Shown one piece after another: positions 22,650 through 62,271 of a stretch of DNA of 64,000 nucleotides (its first letter is position 1; each line of letters starts with the position of its first letter). This stretch comes from Minisyncoccota bacterium. GTDB taxonomy: Bacteria; Patescibacteriota; Minisyncoccia; Phycocordibacterales; UBA6065. The notes below the pieces were generated by a model. It was not told the origin of the DNA, searched no databases, and worked only from the letters and a program-made list of their open reading frames with translations. Position numbers and translations under genes: made by a program. The DNA is taken from assembly GCA_036400935.1 (NCBI GenBank), contig DASWWW010000003.1:35716-99715 (forward strand), in the 5' to 3' direction.

Positions 22650-23009
22650 TACTTCTACCTCCAAATGGTTATTAATTCTCATCTAGCGCGAACGAAATAA
22701 AGGCCATTCAGTTGGCTATATTACGTTTCGCTCGAGAGAGCGATTTCTTTTTTAAGGGGGTATGTTGTTTCTTCGACAATAGAACCCCACCGCATGAGTC
22801 TTTCGAGTCAGTCCTACAAGGGACCGATGAGATGGTCTTTTCAAGCATGCAGGTGACTGCAATGATCTATAGATGGTTATTGCAAAACCTACTTTTTTCC
22901 AGGAAAGAAAAAGTAGAACAGGTAAATTAAAGTATTGAATTTCTGTTCGTTGTAAGCGAACAGGGATCATTGAGAGAAATTAGTTTAGTGGTTTTTAAAT
23001 TTCCTAATA

Positions 23010-26300
<3,291 letters not shown>

Positions 26301-26412
26301 TTATTAGGAAATTTATGAATCACACATGCCGTTCGAAAGGACAGCGGTGGTCTAGTTTCCTCAACTTTATTTACTTGAAATTACATATTTCCGAAAAACA
26401 ACATGATTGAGC

Positions 26413-26534
26413 TCTCTGTTCTGGTGATTCAACGCGATGGAACCACCTCTTCCCATCCCGAACAGAGAAGTTAAACGTCGTAGTGCCGATGATAGTCCTA
26501 CAGGGCGAAAGTAGGTAGTCGCCAGTACAGAGAG
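26413..26534 (+). rRNA. rrf: 5S ribosomal RNA.
   Basis: cccatcccgaacagagaagttaaac...gccgatgatagt...agtaggtagtcgcc. The terminal helix is ctctctgttc / acagagag. Confidence 0.85.
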
Positions 26535-40757: not shown

Positions 40758-41099
40758 TGTACTTACCTCTGAAAAACTCAGGTTTGAGGAAAAAAGACTT
40801 CGAAAGATGTCCTTTTTCTTTAAGGGGGACGGCAACTGTCGGACTTTGAAATAATTATTGTTATATAAGATTGAGAACGTGCAGAAGAGAGACTGGTTCA
40901 AGTTTCTTTGAATGTACGAGTCCAAATCTTTGAGTATGTTGGATACTGCGATCGGGTCAAAATTCGGACCAAGAGCAGATAATAGGATTGTGGAGGCGGG
41001 AAAGCACCCGTGAATCTCCCAGAGCAAAATATGCAGCAGTTCATACTGTCGTCTATTTTGTTCCGTTCGCTTTGTGCGCTCTTCGGAGCTTCAAAGTTT

Positions 41100-42592
41100 A
41101 TATTAAGAGTTTGATCCTAGCTCAGGATGAACGCTGGCGGCGTGGATAAGTCATGCAAGTCAAGGGGGCCGCAAGGCAACCGGCAGACGAGGTAGTAATA
41201 AGTAGGTACGAAACCAAAAGTCATGAATAGCCCACCGAAAGGTGGGGTAATACATGATAGTCCCTCCGGGGTAAAGATTTATCGCTTTTGGATCGGCCTG
41301 CTCGGTATCAGCTAGTTGGTGAGGTAAAAGCTCACCAAGGCTATGACGCCTAGGGGACCTGAGAGGGTGACCCCCACCGATGGAACTGAGACACGGTCCA
41401 TACACCTACGGGTGGCTGCAGACGAGAATATTCGACAATGGACGAAAGTCTGATCGAGCGACGCCGCGTGCAGGATGAAGTCCTTCGGGACGTAAACTGC
41501 TTTTATTGGGGAGGAAGTTTATTGACGTTACCCATTGAATAAGAGGTTGCTAAACTCGTGCCAGCAGCAGCGGTAATACGAGTGCCTCAAGCGTTATCCG
41601 GAATCATTGGGCGTAAAGGATGTGTAGGTGGCCGCATTAGTCTTTTGTTAAATTTCCCGGCTTAACTGGGAACCTGCAGAAGAAACGGTGCGGCTAGAGG
41701 ATGCAAGGGGTCTGCGGAACTCATAGTGTAGCGGTGAAATGCGTTGATATTATGGGGAACACCAAAAGCGAAGGCAGCAGACTGGGGCACTCCTGACACT
41801 GAAACATGAAAGCGTGGGTAGCGAATGGGATTAGATACCCCAGTAGTCCACGCCCTAAACGATGACAACTAGCTATTTCGAGTATCGACCCTCGGAGTGG
41901 CGTAGCTAACGCGTTAAGTTGTCCGCCTGGGTAGTACGACCGCAAGGTTAAAACTCAAAGGAATAGACGGGGACTCGCACAAGCAGAGGATCATGTGGTT
42001 TAATTCGATGGTAAACGAAGAACCTTACCAGGGTTAGAAATGTAGCTGAAGACAAGCAGAAACGTTTGTCGCCGCAAGGCAGTTACACAGGTGCTGCATG
42101 GCCGTCGTCAGTTCGTGGTTTGAATTGTTCCCTTCAGTGGGGTAACGAACGCAACCCTCATTGCCTGTTACAAGTGTCAGGCGAGACTGCCCAGCTTTTT
42201 GAGCACAAATCGAAAGATTTGCGAGCAAGAAGCTGGGAGGAAGGTGAGGATGACGCCAGGTCAGCATGGCCCTCTGATACCCTGGGCTACACACGTGATA
42301 CAATGGTGCATACAACGCGACGCGACGAGGAAACTCTGAGCAAATCGTAATAAAGTGCACCCTAGTTCGGATAGGAGTCTGCAACTCGACTCCTTGAAGC
42401 TGGATTTGCTAGTAATCTCGGGTCAGCCATACCGAGGTGAATACGTTCTCGAGTCTTGTACTCACCGCCCGTCAACTCAAGGGAGTTGGGAGTGCCCGAA
42501 GTCTGCGCCTGTCGCGGCCTAAGGCAAGCTCAATGACAGGGAGTAAGTCGTAACAAGGCACGGGTAGCGGAAGCTGCTCGTGGATTATTTCA
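41100..42592 (+). rRNA. rrs: 16S ribosomal RNA, unlinked from 23S-5S. Its 3' tail lacks the anti-Shine-Dalgarno CCUCC.
   Basis: The 5' end is agagtttgatcctagctcaggatgaacgctggcggcg. Internal blocks gtgccagcagcagcggtaatac and gtcgtaacaagg are present. The 3' end reads ...ggaagctgctcgtggattatttc, where CACCUCCUU is expected. Confidence 0.9.
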
Positions 42593-42765
42593 AGTGAAAA
42601 CACGCTTCTTATCTACGGATAAGAGCTGATAGAGTCGATCGTTTCAATAACGGGTTCGCGAGACACCTAAATCTCGCTGGAATCAGGGAAGACTGATAGA
42701 AGTCCGGTAGCCTTTATGGAGACCGAGATTAGAACGGGACAAAATAGAAGACAGTATACATGAAA

Positions 42766-58424: not shown

Positions 58425-58634
58425 ATGCGATACAGAAACATAATCATCGGCCTCGGTTTTTTCGTCGTCATTATCCAGTTCTTGGGCTTCCCTCAGTCAT
58501 GGAGGAACGCCTTTTACGCAGTTTCGGGTATCCTGATCGTCGCCGGAGGCTACATGTCTGACAAGGAGCGCAAGATGCATCCTGCGGCGGCCACCGTCTC
58601 CACATCCGCCGACAGCTCAGGTACCCTCTCATAA
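58425..58634 (+). CDS. Small hypothetical membrane protein.
   Basis: 69 aa with two hydrophobic helices. Support is weak. Confidence 0.3.
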   Translation: MRYRNIIIGLGFFVVIIQFLGFPQSWRNAFYAVSGILIVAGGYMSDKERKMHPAAATVSTSADSSGTLS

Positions 58635-58640
58635 ATTCCT

Positions 58641-59891
58641 GTGGCGCAAGGCAGAACGAAAGAGAGCATAAGGGCTTATCGCATCGGGGTCGCCGTCCTG
58701 ATAGCCTTTTTGTTCCTCTTTATCGTCATATATGCCGGCGTGCCGGGTGGCGACATCAGCTATACGTCGGGGACGCCCGCTAGCGTAGCTACGTCGGCGC
58801 CGGCGGCGCCACTGATTCCCGAAGTCCCGCATCTCGCGACGCCGCCGGCGGTCAAAGGCATATATATGACGTCGTGCGTGGCCGCCACCCCGAGCCTGCG
58901 CGACAATCTCGTGAAGCTCATCGATGAGACCGAAATAAACTCTGTCGTCATCGATATAAAGTCGTTCGACGGGTACCTCTCGTTCGAGCCGGAGAACCCC
59001 GATCTCAAGCACGCTACCGGCGGCTGCTTTGTAAAGGACATGAAGGACTTCCTCGAGACGCTCCATGATCACAATATCTACGTCATCGGCCGCCTCGCCT
59101 CGTTCCAGGACGCGCTGCAGGTAAAGCTTCGCCCGGAGCTTGCCGTAAAGAAGGCGACGGCGACTTCTACCGTCTGGCGCGATCACAAGGGAATCCCTTG
59201 GATCGACGCTTCGGCCCGGCCGCACTGGGAATACCTCATTGCCGTGGCAAAGGACGCGTACGCGGTCGGCTTTGACGAGGTCAATTTCGATTACATCCGC
59301 TTTCCGTCTGACGGCAACATGAAGGACATCAGCTTCCCATGGAGCGGGGACAGGAAGAAGAGCGAGGTCATGCGATCCTTCTTTGAATATATCCACGAGG
59401 AATTGGGACCTACCAAGATCGTTACCTCCGCCGACCTCTTTGGCATGACGACGACTAATACCGACGACCTCAATATAGGTCAGATCCTTGAATATGCATT
59501 GCCCAATTTCGACTACATCGCCCCGATGGTCTATCCGTCGCACTATCCGAAGGGATTCATGAACTTTTCCGATCCAAATCAGCACGTGTACGAGGTGGTC
59601 AATCATTCGATGCAGGTAGCTGCGGACCGGACCGTTGCGACTACTACGAAGGTTCCGATGCCCGATTCGCGCATGGGCACGTCGACCCTCTACATGAAGC
59701 CCTCTTTCGATATCAACAAGCTCCGGCCGTGGCTTCAGGACAACAATTATCCGGTAACCTATACGGCCGAAATGGTGCGCGCGCAGATACAGGCAACTTA
59801 CGACATCGGCCTCAATTCATGGATGCTTTGGAATGCGGGGAATAGGTACACGAGGGCCGCTTTGGAGACCGCTACGAGCACCGATTTTTAG
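58641..59891 (+). CDS. Membrane-anchored putative glycoside-hydrolase-like TIM-barrel protein (DUF4015/GHL-like).
   Basis: 416 aa with an N-terminal TM helix, then GIYMTSCVAATP...VVIDIKSFDGYL...GFDEVNFDYIRFP. The antisense ORF 58629-59606 is rejected. Confidence 0.55.
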   Translation: MAQGRTKESIRAYRIGVAVLIAFLFLFIVIYAGVPGGDISYTSGTPASVATSAPAAPLIPEVPHLATPPAVKGIYMTSCVAATPSLRDNLVKLIDETEINSVVIDIKSFDGYLSFEPENPDLKHATGGCFVKDMKDFLETLHDHNIYVIGRLASFQDALQVKLRPELAVKKATATSTVWRDHKGIPWIDASARPHWEYLIAVAKDAYAVGFDEVNFDYIRFPSDGNMKDISFPWSGDRKKSEVMRSFFEYIHEELGPTKIVTSADLFGMTTTNTDDLNIGQILEYALPNFDYIAPMVYPSHYPKGFMNFSDPNQHVYEVVNHSMQVAADRTVATTTKVPMPDSRMGTSTLYMKPSFDINKLRPWLQDNNYPVTYTAEMVRAQIQATYDIGLNSWMLWNAGNRYTRAALETATSTDF

Positions 59892-59894
59892 CCT

Positions 59895-60250
59895 TAATTT
59901 GCACAAGGCGGTACTTGCAAACTTTTGTCAATTGGGTAGTATTGGGGAGTCTTGGCGGTACCAGGACCCTTCCTCTGGAAGGATTTCGTAATCAAGTAGC
60001 TCCTTAGAAAATGCGCACTAGCTCACGTCGGCGGTCGTTCCTGTCCTCGCAACCATCGCAGCAAACGGGAAATCCTTTCCCGAAGCCTGATTCGAACCGT
60101 GGCGGTTCTGATGATGGCCTCAAGTGGGTGCAGACGGGTTCGCGCCGCGGTCACTGGGAAAAGCGGTAGCGTAAGTGGCGGCGAGAAGGCTTCATCATCT
60201 CGTCATTCGAAGCTCGGCGGCGGATCACCCCTGATCCGCCGCTTTCGCTT
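59895..60250 (+). ncRNA. Candidate structured non-coding RNA with its own rho-independent terminator (60217-60250), class unknown.
   Basis: About 390-nt GC-rich gap with no credible ORF. Several local hairpins (ccttcc-tctg-ggaagg, gggaaa-tcc-tttccc) and a long-range 7-bp pairing (gaagcct at 60083 / aggcttc at 60186). It ends in the terminator ggcggcggatca-cccc-tgatccgccgc-tttcgcttt. Confidence 0.25.
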
Positions 60251-60285
60251 TGTCTAAATAAGATAAAAATGGCACAATAGGGCAA

Positions 60286-62271
60286 ATGACAAGCGACGAC
60301 AAGGTAACATATTTCGGCGAGACCGACGCGCGAGGCAAGAGGGTCAAATTCGGCATCAAGGCCGAGGACCGCACCCGCCACATGTACGTCATCGGAAAGA
60401 CGGGAATGGGAAAATCGAACCTTCTCGAGGTCATGGCCGTGCAGGATATCCAGAGCGGGGAAGGCCTCTGCTTTATCGACCCCCACGGCAAGACAGCCGA
60501 GCTTCTCCTCAATTACATCCCCGAGAACCGCATCAAGGATATCGTGTACTTCGCGCCGTTCGACGTGGACAATCCGATTTCCTTCAACGTCATGGAGGAC
60601 GTGGGCTACGACAAGCGACACCTTGTCGTTTCGGGCCTCATGTCCACCTTCAAGAAGATTTGGGTCGACGCATGGTCTGCCCGTATGGAATACATCCTCG
60701 GCAACACGCTTCTCGCGTTGCTTGAGTATCCCGACGCGACGCTCCTCGGCGTAAACAAGATGCTTTCGGACAAGGTCTACCGCAAGAAAGTGGTCGACAA
60801 TATTACCGATCCCGCCGTTAAGTCCTTCTGGGTCGACGAATTCGCGAAGTACACCGAGAAATTCGCCGCCGAGGCGACTCCCGCTATCCAGAACAAGATC
60901 GGACAGTTCACGAACAATCCTCTCATCCGAAACATCATCGGCCAGCCGAAATCATCGTTCGATATCCGAAAGATGATGGACGAGCGCAAGATCCTCATCG
61001 TGAACCTCTCGAAGGGACGAGTGGGCGAGTCGAATGCGAACCTCCTCGGAGCGATGTTCATCACGAAAATCTATCTCGCCGCCATGAGCCGTGCTGACGC
61101 GTCCGAAAAGATGATGAAGGCCCTGCCTAACTTCTACCTCTACGTAGACGAGTTCCAGTCGTTCGCCAACGAGTCGTTTGCTGACATCCTTTCCGAGGCC
61201 CGAAAATACAAATTGAACCTGACCATTGCTCACCAGTACGTCGAGCAGATGTCCGAGGAGGTGCGCGCGGCCGTATTCGGAAACGTGGGAACTATGATCG
61301 TTTTCCGCGTGGGCTCTATCGACGCCGAGCAGTTCGAGAAGGAGTTCGCTCCCAAATTCACTGCGGACGATATCGTAAACCTCGGCAAGTACCAGATGTA
61401 CTTGCGCCTTATGATCGACGGCGTGGGATCTCAGCCATTCTCTGCGAGGGGATTGCCGCCAGTAGCGGTGCCAGCCATATCGTATAAGGAGCAGGCGATC
61501 GCGGCTTCTCAGGCTACGTTCGGCAATCCGCGCGAGAAAGTCGAGGAATACATCCGCGAGTGGATGCTTGGCGGCCCCGCTGAGGCAAAGGCGGACAAGC
61601 CTGCCGCGGGCGACAAGGCGGTTTCGGCTACTCCCGCTTCGGGTTCGCCCGCGGCATTGGCACAGGTCCCTCGCGCCCCTCAGCAGGCGACGCGCCCGGC
61701 CCAGGATTTCCGAAAGCCTCAGGAGAACAGGCCGCCTCGCGCGCCGTCTCCTATAGACATGCGCCAGCCCGTAGCGCCAGTCCCTCCAAAGCCGCGACCC
61801 GCGATGCCTCTTCCGCCTGCGGATCCCGCTGACGGCTTTCAGGGCCTCGCTTCATTGAAATCTCTCGTCCAGGCTCCGGCTCCAAAGCCGGCGGCAGATA
61901 ATCGCCCAAAGGAGAATCGCCATCCGGAAAGAAAGGGCGTGACTGCCGAGTCGCGCCTCGATCTCAAGATGGCGTTGGCCGCCCTCATAAAGCCGGAACA
62001 GAATTCCAGCAAGCCTGCCGAGCCGAAACCTGCGCCTGCAAAGGACAAGCCGGCGGCGGTCCCAGCGGCGACCCAGGCAAAGCCGCCCGCTCCGGCCCCG
62101 GCCCACAAGATCGCGCCCGCCATAGACACCTCTCGCTCTACCGTGAAGCCCCAGGAAAAACCTGCTGAAAAACCGGCGGAAAAGCCGGTCGAAAAGGCGG
62201 CGCCTCAGCCAAAGAAAGAGGGCCTTCAGGAAGTTCCCGAGGACGTCCTAAAGAGGATGCTCGAAGTCTAA
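60286..62271 (+). CDS. TraD/TraG/VirD4-like (TrwB-type) P-loop ATPase, soluble, with a long Pro/Ala/Lys-rich C-terminal tail.
   Basis: Walker A HMYVIGKTGMGKSNLL, IDPHGKTAE (compare the DPKGE of coupling proteins), Walker B YLYVDEFQSF. There are no N-terminal TM helices. The C-terminal 200 aa are low-complexity (PAPKP-like repeats). Confidence 0.5.
   Translation: MTSDDKVTYFGETDARGKRVKFGIKAEDRTRHMYVIGKTGMGKSNLLEVMAVQDIQSGEGLCFIDPHGKTAELLLNYIPENRIKDIVYFAPFDVDNPISFNVMEDVGYDKRHLVVSGLMSTFKKIWVDAWSARMEYILGNTLLALLEYPDATLLGVNKMLSDKVYRKKVVDNITDPAVKSFWVDEFAKYTEKFAAEATPAIQNKIGQFTNNPLIRNIIGQPKSSFDIRKMMDERKILIVNLSKGRVGESNANLLGAMFITKIYLAAMSRADASEKMMKALPNFYLYVDEFQSFANESFADILSEARKYKLNLTIAHQYVEQMSEEVRAAVFGNVGTMIVFRVGSIDAEQFEKEFAPKFTADDIVNLGKYQMYLRLMIDGVGSQPFSARGLPPVAVPAISYKEQAIAASQATFGNPREKVEEYIREWMLGGPAEAKADKPAAGDKAVSATPASGSPAALAQVPRAPQQATRPAQDFRKPQENRPPRAPSPIDMRQPVAPVPPKPRPAMPLPPADPADGFQGLASLKSLVQAPAPKPAADNRPKENRHPERKGVTAESRLDLKMALAALIKPEQNSSKPAEPKPAPAKDKPAAVPAATQAKPPAPAPAHKIAPAIDTSRSTVKPQEKPAEKPAEKPVEKAAPQPKKEGLQEVPEDVLKRMLEV

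Follow-up and report, generated by a model that had tools for sequence, protein, structure and literature searches.

Here, we describe a 394-nt interval without a called gene (positions 59892-60285) in a Candidatus Paceibacterota (CPR/Patescibacteria) MAG; "the window" below is the whole 64 kb stretch of DNA analysed, and "the gap" is this interval. The gap lies between a DUF4015 putative glycosyl-hydrolase gene and a gene for a TraD/VirD4/HerA-like ATPase, labelled 'DUF87 domain-containing protein' in the public record, after which come three GT4 glycosyltransferase genes. Exact-protein look-up with four window proteins returned 12 contigs carrying the window's own proteins, all of which are one locus with a gap identical to that of the window. 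Within the 64 kb no second copy of the gap was found, so a repeat or MITE was rejected. An earlier reading of the letters and their open reading frames (the sequence-only reading) had described a GC-rich, ORF-free gap of roughly 390 nt. The length is borne out, but the rest is not: G+C content is 53.3%, compared with 54.2% across the window and 56-59% in the flanking genes, and the + strand carries two 52-codon ORFs, one starting with ATG and one with GTG (Table 1). The GTG ORF traverses the terminator of the gap and can therefore be dismissed.

Table 1. Genes and predicted features in and around the gap (window coordinates)
Feature	Position	Strand	Details and basis
DUF4015 putative glycosyl-hydrolase gene	58641-59891	+	Upstream neighbour of the gap
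Predicted sigma-70-type promoter	59915-59942	+	-35 TTGCAA 59915-59920, N16, -10 TAGTAT 59937-59942
Two adjacent 5' hairpins	59949-59967; 59968-59982	+	GUCUUGG-CGGUA-CCAGGAC; CCUUCC-UCU-GGAAGG; MFE and centroid folds
ATG ORF, 52 codons plus stop	60011-60169	+	MRTSSRRRSFLSSQPSQQTGNPFPKPDSNRGGSDDGLKWVQTGSRRGHWEKR; candidate orphan small basic protein
Two perfect hairpins inside the ATG ORF	60066-60082; 60094-60108	+	CGGGAAA-UCC-UUUCCCG; GAACCG-UGG-CGGUUC; hairpin scan
7-bp long-range pair	60082-60088 / 60187-60193	+	GAAGCCT / AGGCTTC, 98 nt apart; present in the sequence
GTG ORF, 52 codons	60099-60257	+	Reading-frame scan
Predicted intrinsic terminator	60216-60253 (hairpin 60216-60243)	+	Terminator scan; sole site found in the gap
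Predicted TraD promoter and leaderless start	60250-60288	+	-35 TTGTCT 60250-60255, 17-nt spacer, TGg+CACAAT 60270-60278, 7 nt, ATG 60286
TraD/VirD4/HerA-like ATPase gene	60286-62271	+	Downstream neighbour of the gap

For comparison, 173 loci with a TraD-like protein were gathered: 80 from species-representative genomes, 80 from metagenomes and 13 by exact-protein look-up, the last amounting to about eight distinct relatives, with the remainder being the source contig or a duplicate. TraD of the closest relatives is 71-75% identical to that of the window over the full protein and 84-90% identical over the conserved N-terminal two-thirds. The conserved gene order is TP_methylase, a small gene, DUF4015, the TraD-like gene and three GT4 genes. 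In 102 of 168 loci DUF4015 precedes TraD in the same orientation, and the interval between them varies from 7 nt to over 2 kb. In the nearest clade this interval is 741-1150 nt long and holds two small units, termed 'a' and 'b'. Unit 'a' is a gene for a small membrane or zinc-ribbon protein and is equipped with a terminator of its own. In unit 'b', a promoter (TGGACA-N16/17-TAGnnT) leads into a structured leader, then an ATG-initiated ORF of 65-106 codons and a hairpin terminator, with a conserved leaderless TraD promoter directly behind; this layout is seen in the closest relatives (loci L163-L168, L001-L006 and L081-L085). No nucleotide homologs of the gap were found in the 173 loci by blastn, nhmmer or profile nhmmer built from the relatives' units, so orthology between the window's unit and theirs is argued from position and architecture alone. 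Compared in this way, the gap looks like a unit 'b' that stands without unit 'a'.

The predicted promoter of the gap (TTGCAA-N16-TAGTAT) starts 23 nt past the DUF4015 stop and aligns with the 'b'-unit promoters of 14 relatives (TGGACA/TTTACA-N16/17-(gag)TAGnnT), and it fits the form of the clade's sigma-70-type promoters (-35 and -10 hexamers separated by 16-18 nt). Scored with a weight matrix made from the 14 relatives' sites only, with the window left out, it comes 9th among the 127,920 positions of the window, and among the sites that outrank it are those immediately preceding the 16S and 23S rRNA genes and several protein genes. A generic promoter scan missed this site because only 8 of 12 positions fit the E. 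coli consensus. Transcription is predicted to start near 59949 and to yield a transcript of ~300 nt (about 59949-60250). The distance from the -10 element to the ATG is 68 nt in the window and 73 nt in L163. Two adjacent hairpins open the predicted transcript, and the units of relatives also open with one or two strong hairpins, whose sequences are unrelated to those of the window. Folding of the first 70 nt of the unit gave a mean z of -1.67 over 15 units (-1.09 for the window).

At the other end of the gap, the strong intrinsic terminator that the sequence-only reading had placed shortly before the TraD start is present. Its hairpin has 12 pairs (11 Watson-Crick and one G.T; 8 G-C), a CCCC loop and the tail TTCGCTTTGT(C), and the stem ends 42 nt from the ATG. 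By sequence it thus has the G+C-rich stem of at least 5 pairs, the loop of 3-8 nt and the U-rich tail, at the end of a unit, that characterize intrinsic terminators, although its U-tract is interrupted (UUCGCUUUGU), a style shared by the relatives' terminators. A hairpin is present in all close relatives aligned, its position being conserved and its sequence not. In the 150 nt ahead of the TraD start, terminator-like hairpins were found at 47 of 143 distinct homolog loci, compared with 0 of 159 coding control windows, and the distance from stem end to ATG across TraD homolog loci has a median of 52 nt. The recurrent placement of a terminator just ahead of the TraD start suggests a conserved way to insulate TraD from upstream transcription. 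The next promoter follows at once, its -35 element overlapping the terminator tail and its extended -10 element (TGn) lying 7 nt from the ATG. It is conserved among close relatives ('tttgtcta...aaaaaTGgcacaATag..aaATG'), with a TGnnAnAAT motif found 4-9 nt ahead of the TraD ATG in 41 of 143 homolog loci. The TraD start has no Shine-Dalgarno sequence, and a conserved promoter that abuts the ATG indicates that the TraD mRNA is leaderless. With this promoter adjoining the terminator, and a promoter-like site of its own at the other end, the gap is probably transcribed independently rather than as a TraD 5'UTR, in line with the independent transcript that the sequence-only reading implied.

Gene callers leave the window's ATG ORF uncalled, as they do the equivalent ORFs of L163 and L168. 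Its predicted product is a 52-residue protein (MRTSSRRR...GHWEKR), strongly basic and hydrophilic, with predicted peptides SFLSSQPSQQTGNPFPKPDSNR, GGSDDGLK and WVQTGSR, and is the shortest of the unit series. The ATG, about 60 nt into the predicted RNA, falls where the sequence is A-rich and unstructured (89th percentile of the transcript); over 13 units, start-codon unstructuredness has a mean percentile of 0.78 (0.89 in the window). The ORF stop is 116 nt from the TraD ATG, within the 87-121 nt seen in relatives. ATG ORFs of 50 codons or more that end no more than 70 nt from the terminator occur in 13 of 13 units, compared with 1.21 expected from dinucleotide shuffles, the 13 being those units, the window among them, whose hairpin meets terminator criteria. 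For the window alone the same ORF-near-terminator test gave p = 0.055, and ATG ORFs of 52 codons or more arose anywhere in 25% of shuffles of the gap.

Codon usage of the window ORF is poor, with a log-odds score of -8.4 per 52 codons, compared with means of -11.7 for spurious ORFs and +19.3 for the window's genes; only 4.8% of true gene segments score as low. The 'b' ORFs of relatives range from -10.7 to +11.2, where the other genes of these relatives score about +17; since the 'b' ORFs also score low, codon usage does not discriminate. No real homolog of the window ORF was found among 1.84 billion representative proteins, the sole match being a repetitive, low-complexity protein of 1769 residues, and no family was found in Pfam or NCBIfam. 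Comparison with the relatives' 'b' proteins by phmmer, profiles, BLASTP and shuffle tests revealed no significant similarity: a profile of L164/L165/L167 scores the window ORF at 0.2 bits, a 13-sequence profile ranks it 40th among 496 null ORFs, and shuffle tests against the relatives' ORFs gave p = 0.02-0.86 in 20 uncorrected tests. Resemblances seen by eye (F at residue 10, 'TSSR', 'KW..S.RG', 'NPF' and 'CTAGAAAAT') were non-significant in shuffle and profile tests and were set aside. The window ORF thus resembles small protein 'b' in position and architecture, and not in sequence when compared with the L164/L165/L167, L003/L085 or L006/L084 groups.

Among relatives, the 'b' ORFs retain protein similarity within subclades despite diverged DNA (BLASTP E = 1.5e-8 for L164-L165, 5e-11 for L003-L085 and 1.4e-5 for L006-L084). 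Their in-frame dN/dS is 0.33-0.44, compared with about 0.9-1.5 in shifted frames, under a protein-guided alignment that somewhat favours the true frame. The third codon position is the least conserved, and switches between AGY and TCN codons for Ser are visible. Searching 5.8 billion proteins with a profile of the L164/L165/L167 protein recovered only the L164- and L165-type members that the profile already contained and a single close relative of L164. That the ORF is constantly present, is under protein-level selection and has accessible starts indicates that unit 'b' is a fast-evolving small-protein gene in these relatives. With dN at about 0.7-1.0 within one subclade, undetectable similarity to the more distant window is what orthology would lead us to expect. 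The sequence-only reading had held that a missed small ORF conserved at the protein level would refute a structured RNA here; such conservation holds at clade level, with the window ORF as a positional candidate for it. One close pair of loci behaves differently. In L164 and L173 the whole interval is about 87% identical, with dS of 0.26 in 'b' and 0.49 in 'a', while the neighbouring DUF4015 gene has reached saturation at its synonymous sites (dS 1.39), and dN/dS of 'b' is the same in frame (0.44) as in a shifted frame (0.46). Either recent recombination or nucleotide-level constraint would account for this.

A start codon used without a Shine-Dalgarno sequence would be in keeping with the rest of the genome. 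No Shine-Dalgarno motifs were found upstream of the organism's genes, and its 16S rRNA ends GGAUUAUUUCAAGU, compared with the bacterial consensus GGAUCACCUCCUUU, with no CCUCC tail; unstructured start codons fit a genome of this kind. Our literature search on Shine-Dalgarno loss in CPR returned nothing directly relevant. The absent anti-Shine-Dalgarno, the absent Shine-Dalgarno motifs and the tight packing of terminator and leaderless promoter may interest specialists more than the gap itself.

RNA folding was assessed against shuffled sequences. With the terminator included, folding energy z reaches -2.07 in the gap and -2.0 in the predicted transcript; the - strand gives -0.99. Without the terminator (59949-60212) it falls to -0.53, no better than shuffles, so the terminator is the only strong structural signal, and the proposal of a structured ncRNA is not upheld, with no relevant Rfam family found either. 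The multiple hairpins reported by the sequence-only reading do exist. Three of them (59968-59982 and the two inside the ORF) are perfect, with 6-7 bp and 3-nt loops, a number reached in 0 of 1000 dinucleotide shuffles of the gap, which is the densest spot for perfect short hairpins in the 64 kb (p about 0.1 once the scan is allowed for). The two inside the ORF (60066-60108) mildly favour structure at the RNA level and weigh against a coding role for it. The 7-bp long-range pairing also exists in the sequence, but at chance level (six 7-bp complementary pairs observed in the gap, 4.1 expected from dinucleotide shuffles, p = 0.25), and neither the MFE nor the centroid fold uses it.

Known RNA families were sought with cmscan, over the whole window at Rfam gathering thresholds and over 59700-60450 (751 nt) with permissive filters at E<=10. 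The whole-window search matched 23S, 5S and 16S rRNA, a group I intron and two tRNAs and left the gap empty; the permissive search returned only Xoo2, at 18 bits (gathering score 45), which corresponds to the terminator hairpin. No Rfam matches were found at the equivalent place in 15 related loci. ARAGORN called only tRNA-Leu and tRNA-Ile in the window, both outside the gap, in agreement with the earlier dismissal of tmRNA and tRNA; for the T-loop-like string GGTTCGAATCA at 60088-60098 of the - strand, no T-stem that pairs is present, and a tRNA fragment or att site was also rejected. For RNase P RNA (RNaseP_bact_a/b) there was no match at E<=10, and the best fits to CR-I (GAGGAAAGUCC...) and CR-V, the motifs from which P4 is built, need 6/15 substitutions. 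For bacterial small SRP (4.5S) RNA there was likewise no match at E<=10, the helix-8 motif, which in this RNA carries a GNAR tetraloop and conserved symmetric and asymmetric loops, is missing even when 7 substitutions are allowed, and the 5' end is taken up in local hairpins. For 6S RNA, whose ends pair around a large bubble in a molecule of about 180-200 nt, cmscan gave no match, and the MFE and centroid folds have neither an end-to-end helix nor a central bubble. Any similarity of the gap to plasmids or phages was also absent, and an origin from either was rejected.

From these comparisons, we propose that the gap is a self-contained short transcription unit whose likely product is an unannotated, lineage-specific, fast-evolving, basic small protein of 52 residues, a reading that we place at about even chances. 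Because no homolog of the window ORF could be detected and its codon usage is poor, the candidate is best phrased as an orphan small-protein gene. RNA polymerase would initiate near 59949, and the two adjacent 5' stem-loops may protect the RNA 5' end or otherwise set its stability. The ATG about 60 nt downstream would then be used from its A-rich, unstructured stretch, with translation stopping at 60169. The hairpin at 60216-60243 would end the gap transcript together with any read-through from the DUF4015 operon, and the TraD-like gene would restart as a leaderless mRNA from a promoter that overlaps the terminator tail.

The gap could instead be a non-functional spacer, a decayed remnant of the relatives' small genes, in which only the terminator, ending the TP_methylase-DUF4015 operon, and the TraD promoter matter, and the ORF and internal promoter-like site are relics or chance. 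The window interval is the shortest of the clade, lacks the upstream small Zn-ribbon membrane gene and its terminator, and belongs to a hot spot of turnover, judging from the range of lengths among the 102 loci. Between the DUF4015 stop and 60216 there is no terminator, so read-through would make the gap a 3'UTR, and the spurious-like codon usage, the lack of homologs and the window-alone p value of only 0.055 are consistent with decay. We regard this as rather unlikely, because the promoter-like site equals genuine promoters of this genome in rank, the ORF is intact with an accessible ATG, and the spacings from -10 to ATG and from stop to TraD ATG are like those of relatives.

A lineage-specific small non-coding or dual-function RNA of ~300 nt (59949 to about 60250), with the 52-codon frame incidental or secondary, would draw on several of the same observations. 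Promoter and terminator bound a discrete predicted transcript, the trio of perfect hairpins is unmatched in shuffles, and the 5' leaders of equivalent units are more structured than shuffles; moreover, a leader stem CCAGT/ACTGG in L164, L167 and L168 becomes CGGT/ACCG in L165. The low divergence of the L164/L173 interval relative to the neighbouring gene, the equal dN/dS of its 'b' ORF in frame and in a shifted frame, and the non-coding-like codon usage of the homolog-free window ORF would also fit. Bacterial RNA regulators that also encode a small peptide include SgrS and RNAIII, and the gap resembles trans-acting and dual-function sRNAs of this kind in transcript size, promoter, intrinsic terminator, 5' stem-loop and embedded small ORF. 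It differs from them in that its ORF fills more than half of the transcript, and in that it has no conserved seed and no complementarity longer than 11-12 nt to the rest of the window. The absence of an Rfam family and the unremarkable fold once the terminator is removed count against an RNA product, and an ORF in every unit, with frame-specific selection in the deeper comparisons, is unexpected for a pure ncRNA; we consider this explanation unlikely. A narrower version, which we find distinctly improbable, is a Paceibacteria-specific regulatory or dual-function RNA in which promoter, tandem 5' hairpins and terminator are conserved rather than the peptide, and which would act on or with the TraD/VirD4-like locus. 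Were it true, the low divergence between L164 and L173 would reflect constraint at the RNA level.

The remaining explanations fare worse. Several perfect palindromes upstream of a coupling-protein-like gene could hint at a DNA-level element linked to this ATPase, for instance an oriT or palindromic operator sites, but this is very improbable. The TraD-like gene is conserved on Paceibacteria chromosomes, where its synteny with DUF4015 and GT4 genes is fixed, and its surroundings showed neither relaxase nor T4SS genes. The three palindromes have different sequences and are not conserved in relatives, many of which have just 7-90 nt between DUF4015 and TraD. No plasmid or phage similarity was found. 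The sequence-only reading had also entertained one of the universal RNAs, none of which it saw elsewhere in the window (a lack that the whole-window cmscan confirms). The ~300-nt size class and the terminator would suit RNase P, SRP, 6S or tmRNA too divergent for recognition by eye, but this explanation is effectively refuted by the uniformly negative cmscan, ARAGORN and motif searches, by a 5' end that makes local hairpins and not the pairing with the 3' end of 6S or 4.5S RNA, by relatives without an Rfam match at the same place, and by a gap sequence that is unconserved even where the neighbouring protein is 70-75% identical, where universal RNAs would be conserved.

Compared with these known RNAs, the gap shares size class and intergenic location only, and lacks a covariance-model match, defining motifs, an end-to-end closing helix and conservation across relatives. 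It is not to be annotated as RNase P, SRP, 6S or tmRNA, and blocking such an annotation is the practical, negative value of the check. As a candidate small-protein gene, the gap resembles sORF and orphan genes in being a short stand-alone unit with its own promoter and intrinsic terminator and an ORF of about 50-75 codons, skipped by gene callers, without a family, fast-evolving (dN/dS about 0.4 in relatives), hydrophilic and basic. It differs from them in that translation would be independent of a Shine-Dalgarno sequence, from a structured leader of roughly 60 nt and with a 16S rRNA without an anti-Shine-Dalgarno, and in that the unit is known here from sequence, with an orthology to the relatives' ORFs that is positional only. 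Should the small-protein reading be true, the gap would add another unannotated small gene to those of CPR genomes, of modest value for small-protein annotation in reduced symbiotic bacteria, and Paceibacteria would maintain a slot for a fast-evolving small protein beside a conserved TraD/VirD4-like ATPase.

Among 102 related loci (e.g. L025, L033, L049, L058 and L077; L numbers denote loci with TraD-like homologs from related genomes and metagenomes), the interval between the DUF4015 gene and the TraD/VirD4-like gene can be as short as 7 nt or exceed 2 kb, and is a hot spot in which gene turnover is concentrated. Inserted genes encode proteins that resemble Mur ligases, thioredoxin/DsbD-like membrane proteins and type IV pilins. 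In relatives, a gene with its own terminator sits between DUF4015 and unit b (promoter, leader, small ORF and terminator upstream of TraD), and encodes small protein a, which has 60-80 residues and combines a zinc ribbon (CxxC...CxxC) with a transmembrane segment. The window has no small protein a.

L164 (2254-3000) and L173 (480-1259) share approximately 87% identity over the entire intergenic interval, which takes in units a and b with their leaders and promoters; dS is 0.26-0.49, while synonymous sites of the neighbouring DUF4015 gene are saturated (dS 1.39, dN/dS 0.05). The low divergence of the interval points to either recent recombination or constraint at the nucleotide level. On the other side of DUF4015, a conserved small gene of 56-69 residues follows the TP_methylase gene both in the window (58425-58634) and in all close relatives. 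Its product has no Pfam family, and its codon usage is gene-like (+18.5), in contrast to that of the 52-codon ORF in the gap (-8.4).

Within the gap, the 60066-60082 hairpin and the second of the two 5' hairpins share 9 bp of complementarity (AAGGATTTC / GAAATCCTT): 59979-59987, at the 3' side of the latter, matches 60069-60077, which takes in the former's loop and 3' arm. This pairing could permit another fold; chance alone would give ~0.3 pairs of this kind.

Positions of features in the window and in related loci
Feature	Locus	Position	Remark
Group I intron	window	25755-26010	inside 23S gene
TraD/VirD4-like gene promoter and start	window	60250-60288	compared with L001-L006, L081-L087, L163-L168
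Small protein a	L165	2249-2458	
Small protein a	L167	about 2215-2500	
Small protein a	L002, L003, L004, L006, L081, L084, L168		directly after DUF4015

The rRNA genes of the window (23002-26527 and 41099-42595) do not form a linked cluster, and their order is unusual. The 3310-nt 23S gene, which carries further insertions besides its intron, is followed by 5S; the 16S gene lies ~14.5 kb farther downstream on the same strand, with tRNA-Ile next. The 16S rRNA 3' end (42549-42595) reads ...GGAUUAUUUCAAGU in place of the bacterial consensus GGAUCACCUCCUUU, and therefore lacks the CCUCC anti-Shine-Dalgarno core. Almost no Shine-Dalgarno-like motifs were found at ~40 gene starts inspected across the window, a scarcity in keeping with the absence of this core. 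Many of these genes have a -10-like hexamer just 7-12 nt upstream of the ATG, which suggests leaderless mRNAs. For the TraD/VirD4-like gene, an extended -10 promoter (aaaaaTGgcacaAT) is strongly conserved 6-7 nt 5' of the ATG in Paceibacteria, and in close relatives a terminator stands immediately 5' of this promoter. Together, these elements would make the TraD/VirD4-like gene a transcriptionally insulated, leaderless transcription unit in many genomes.
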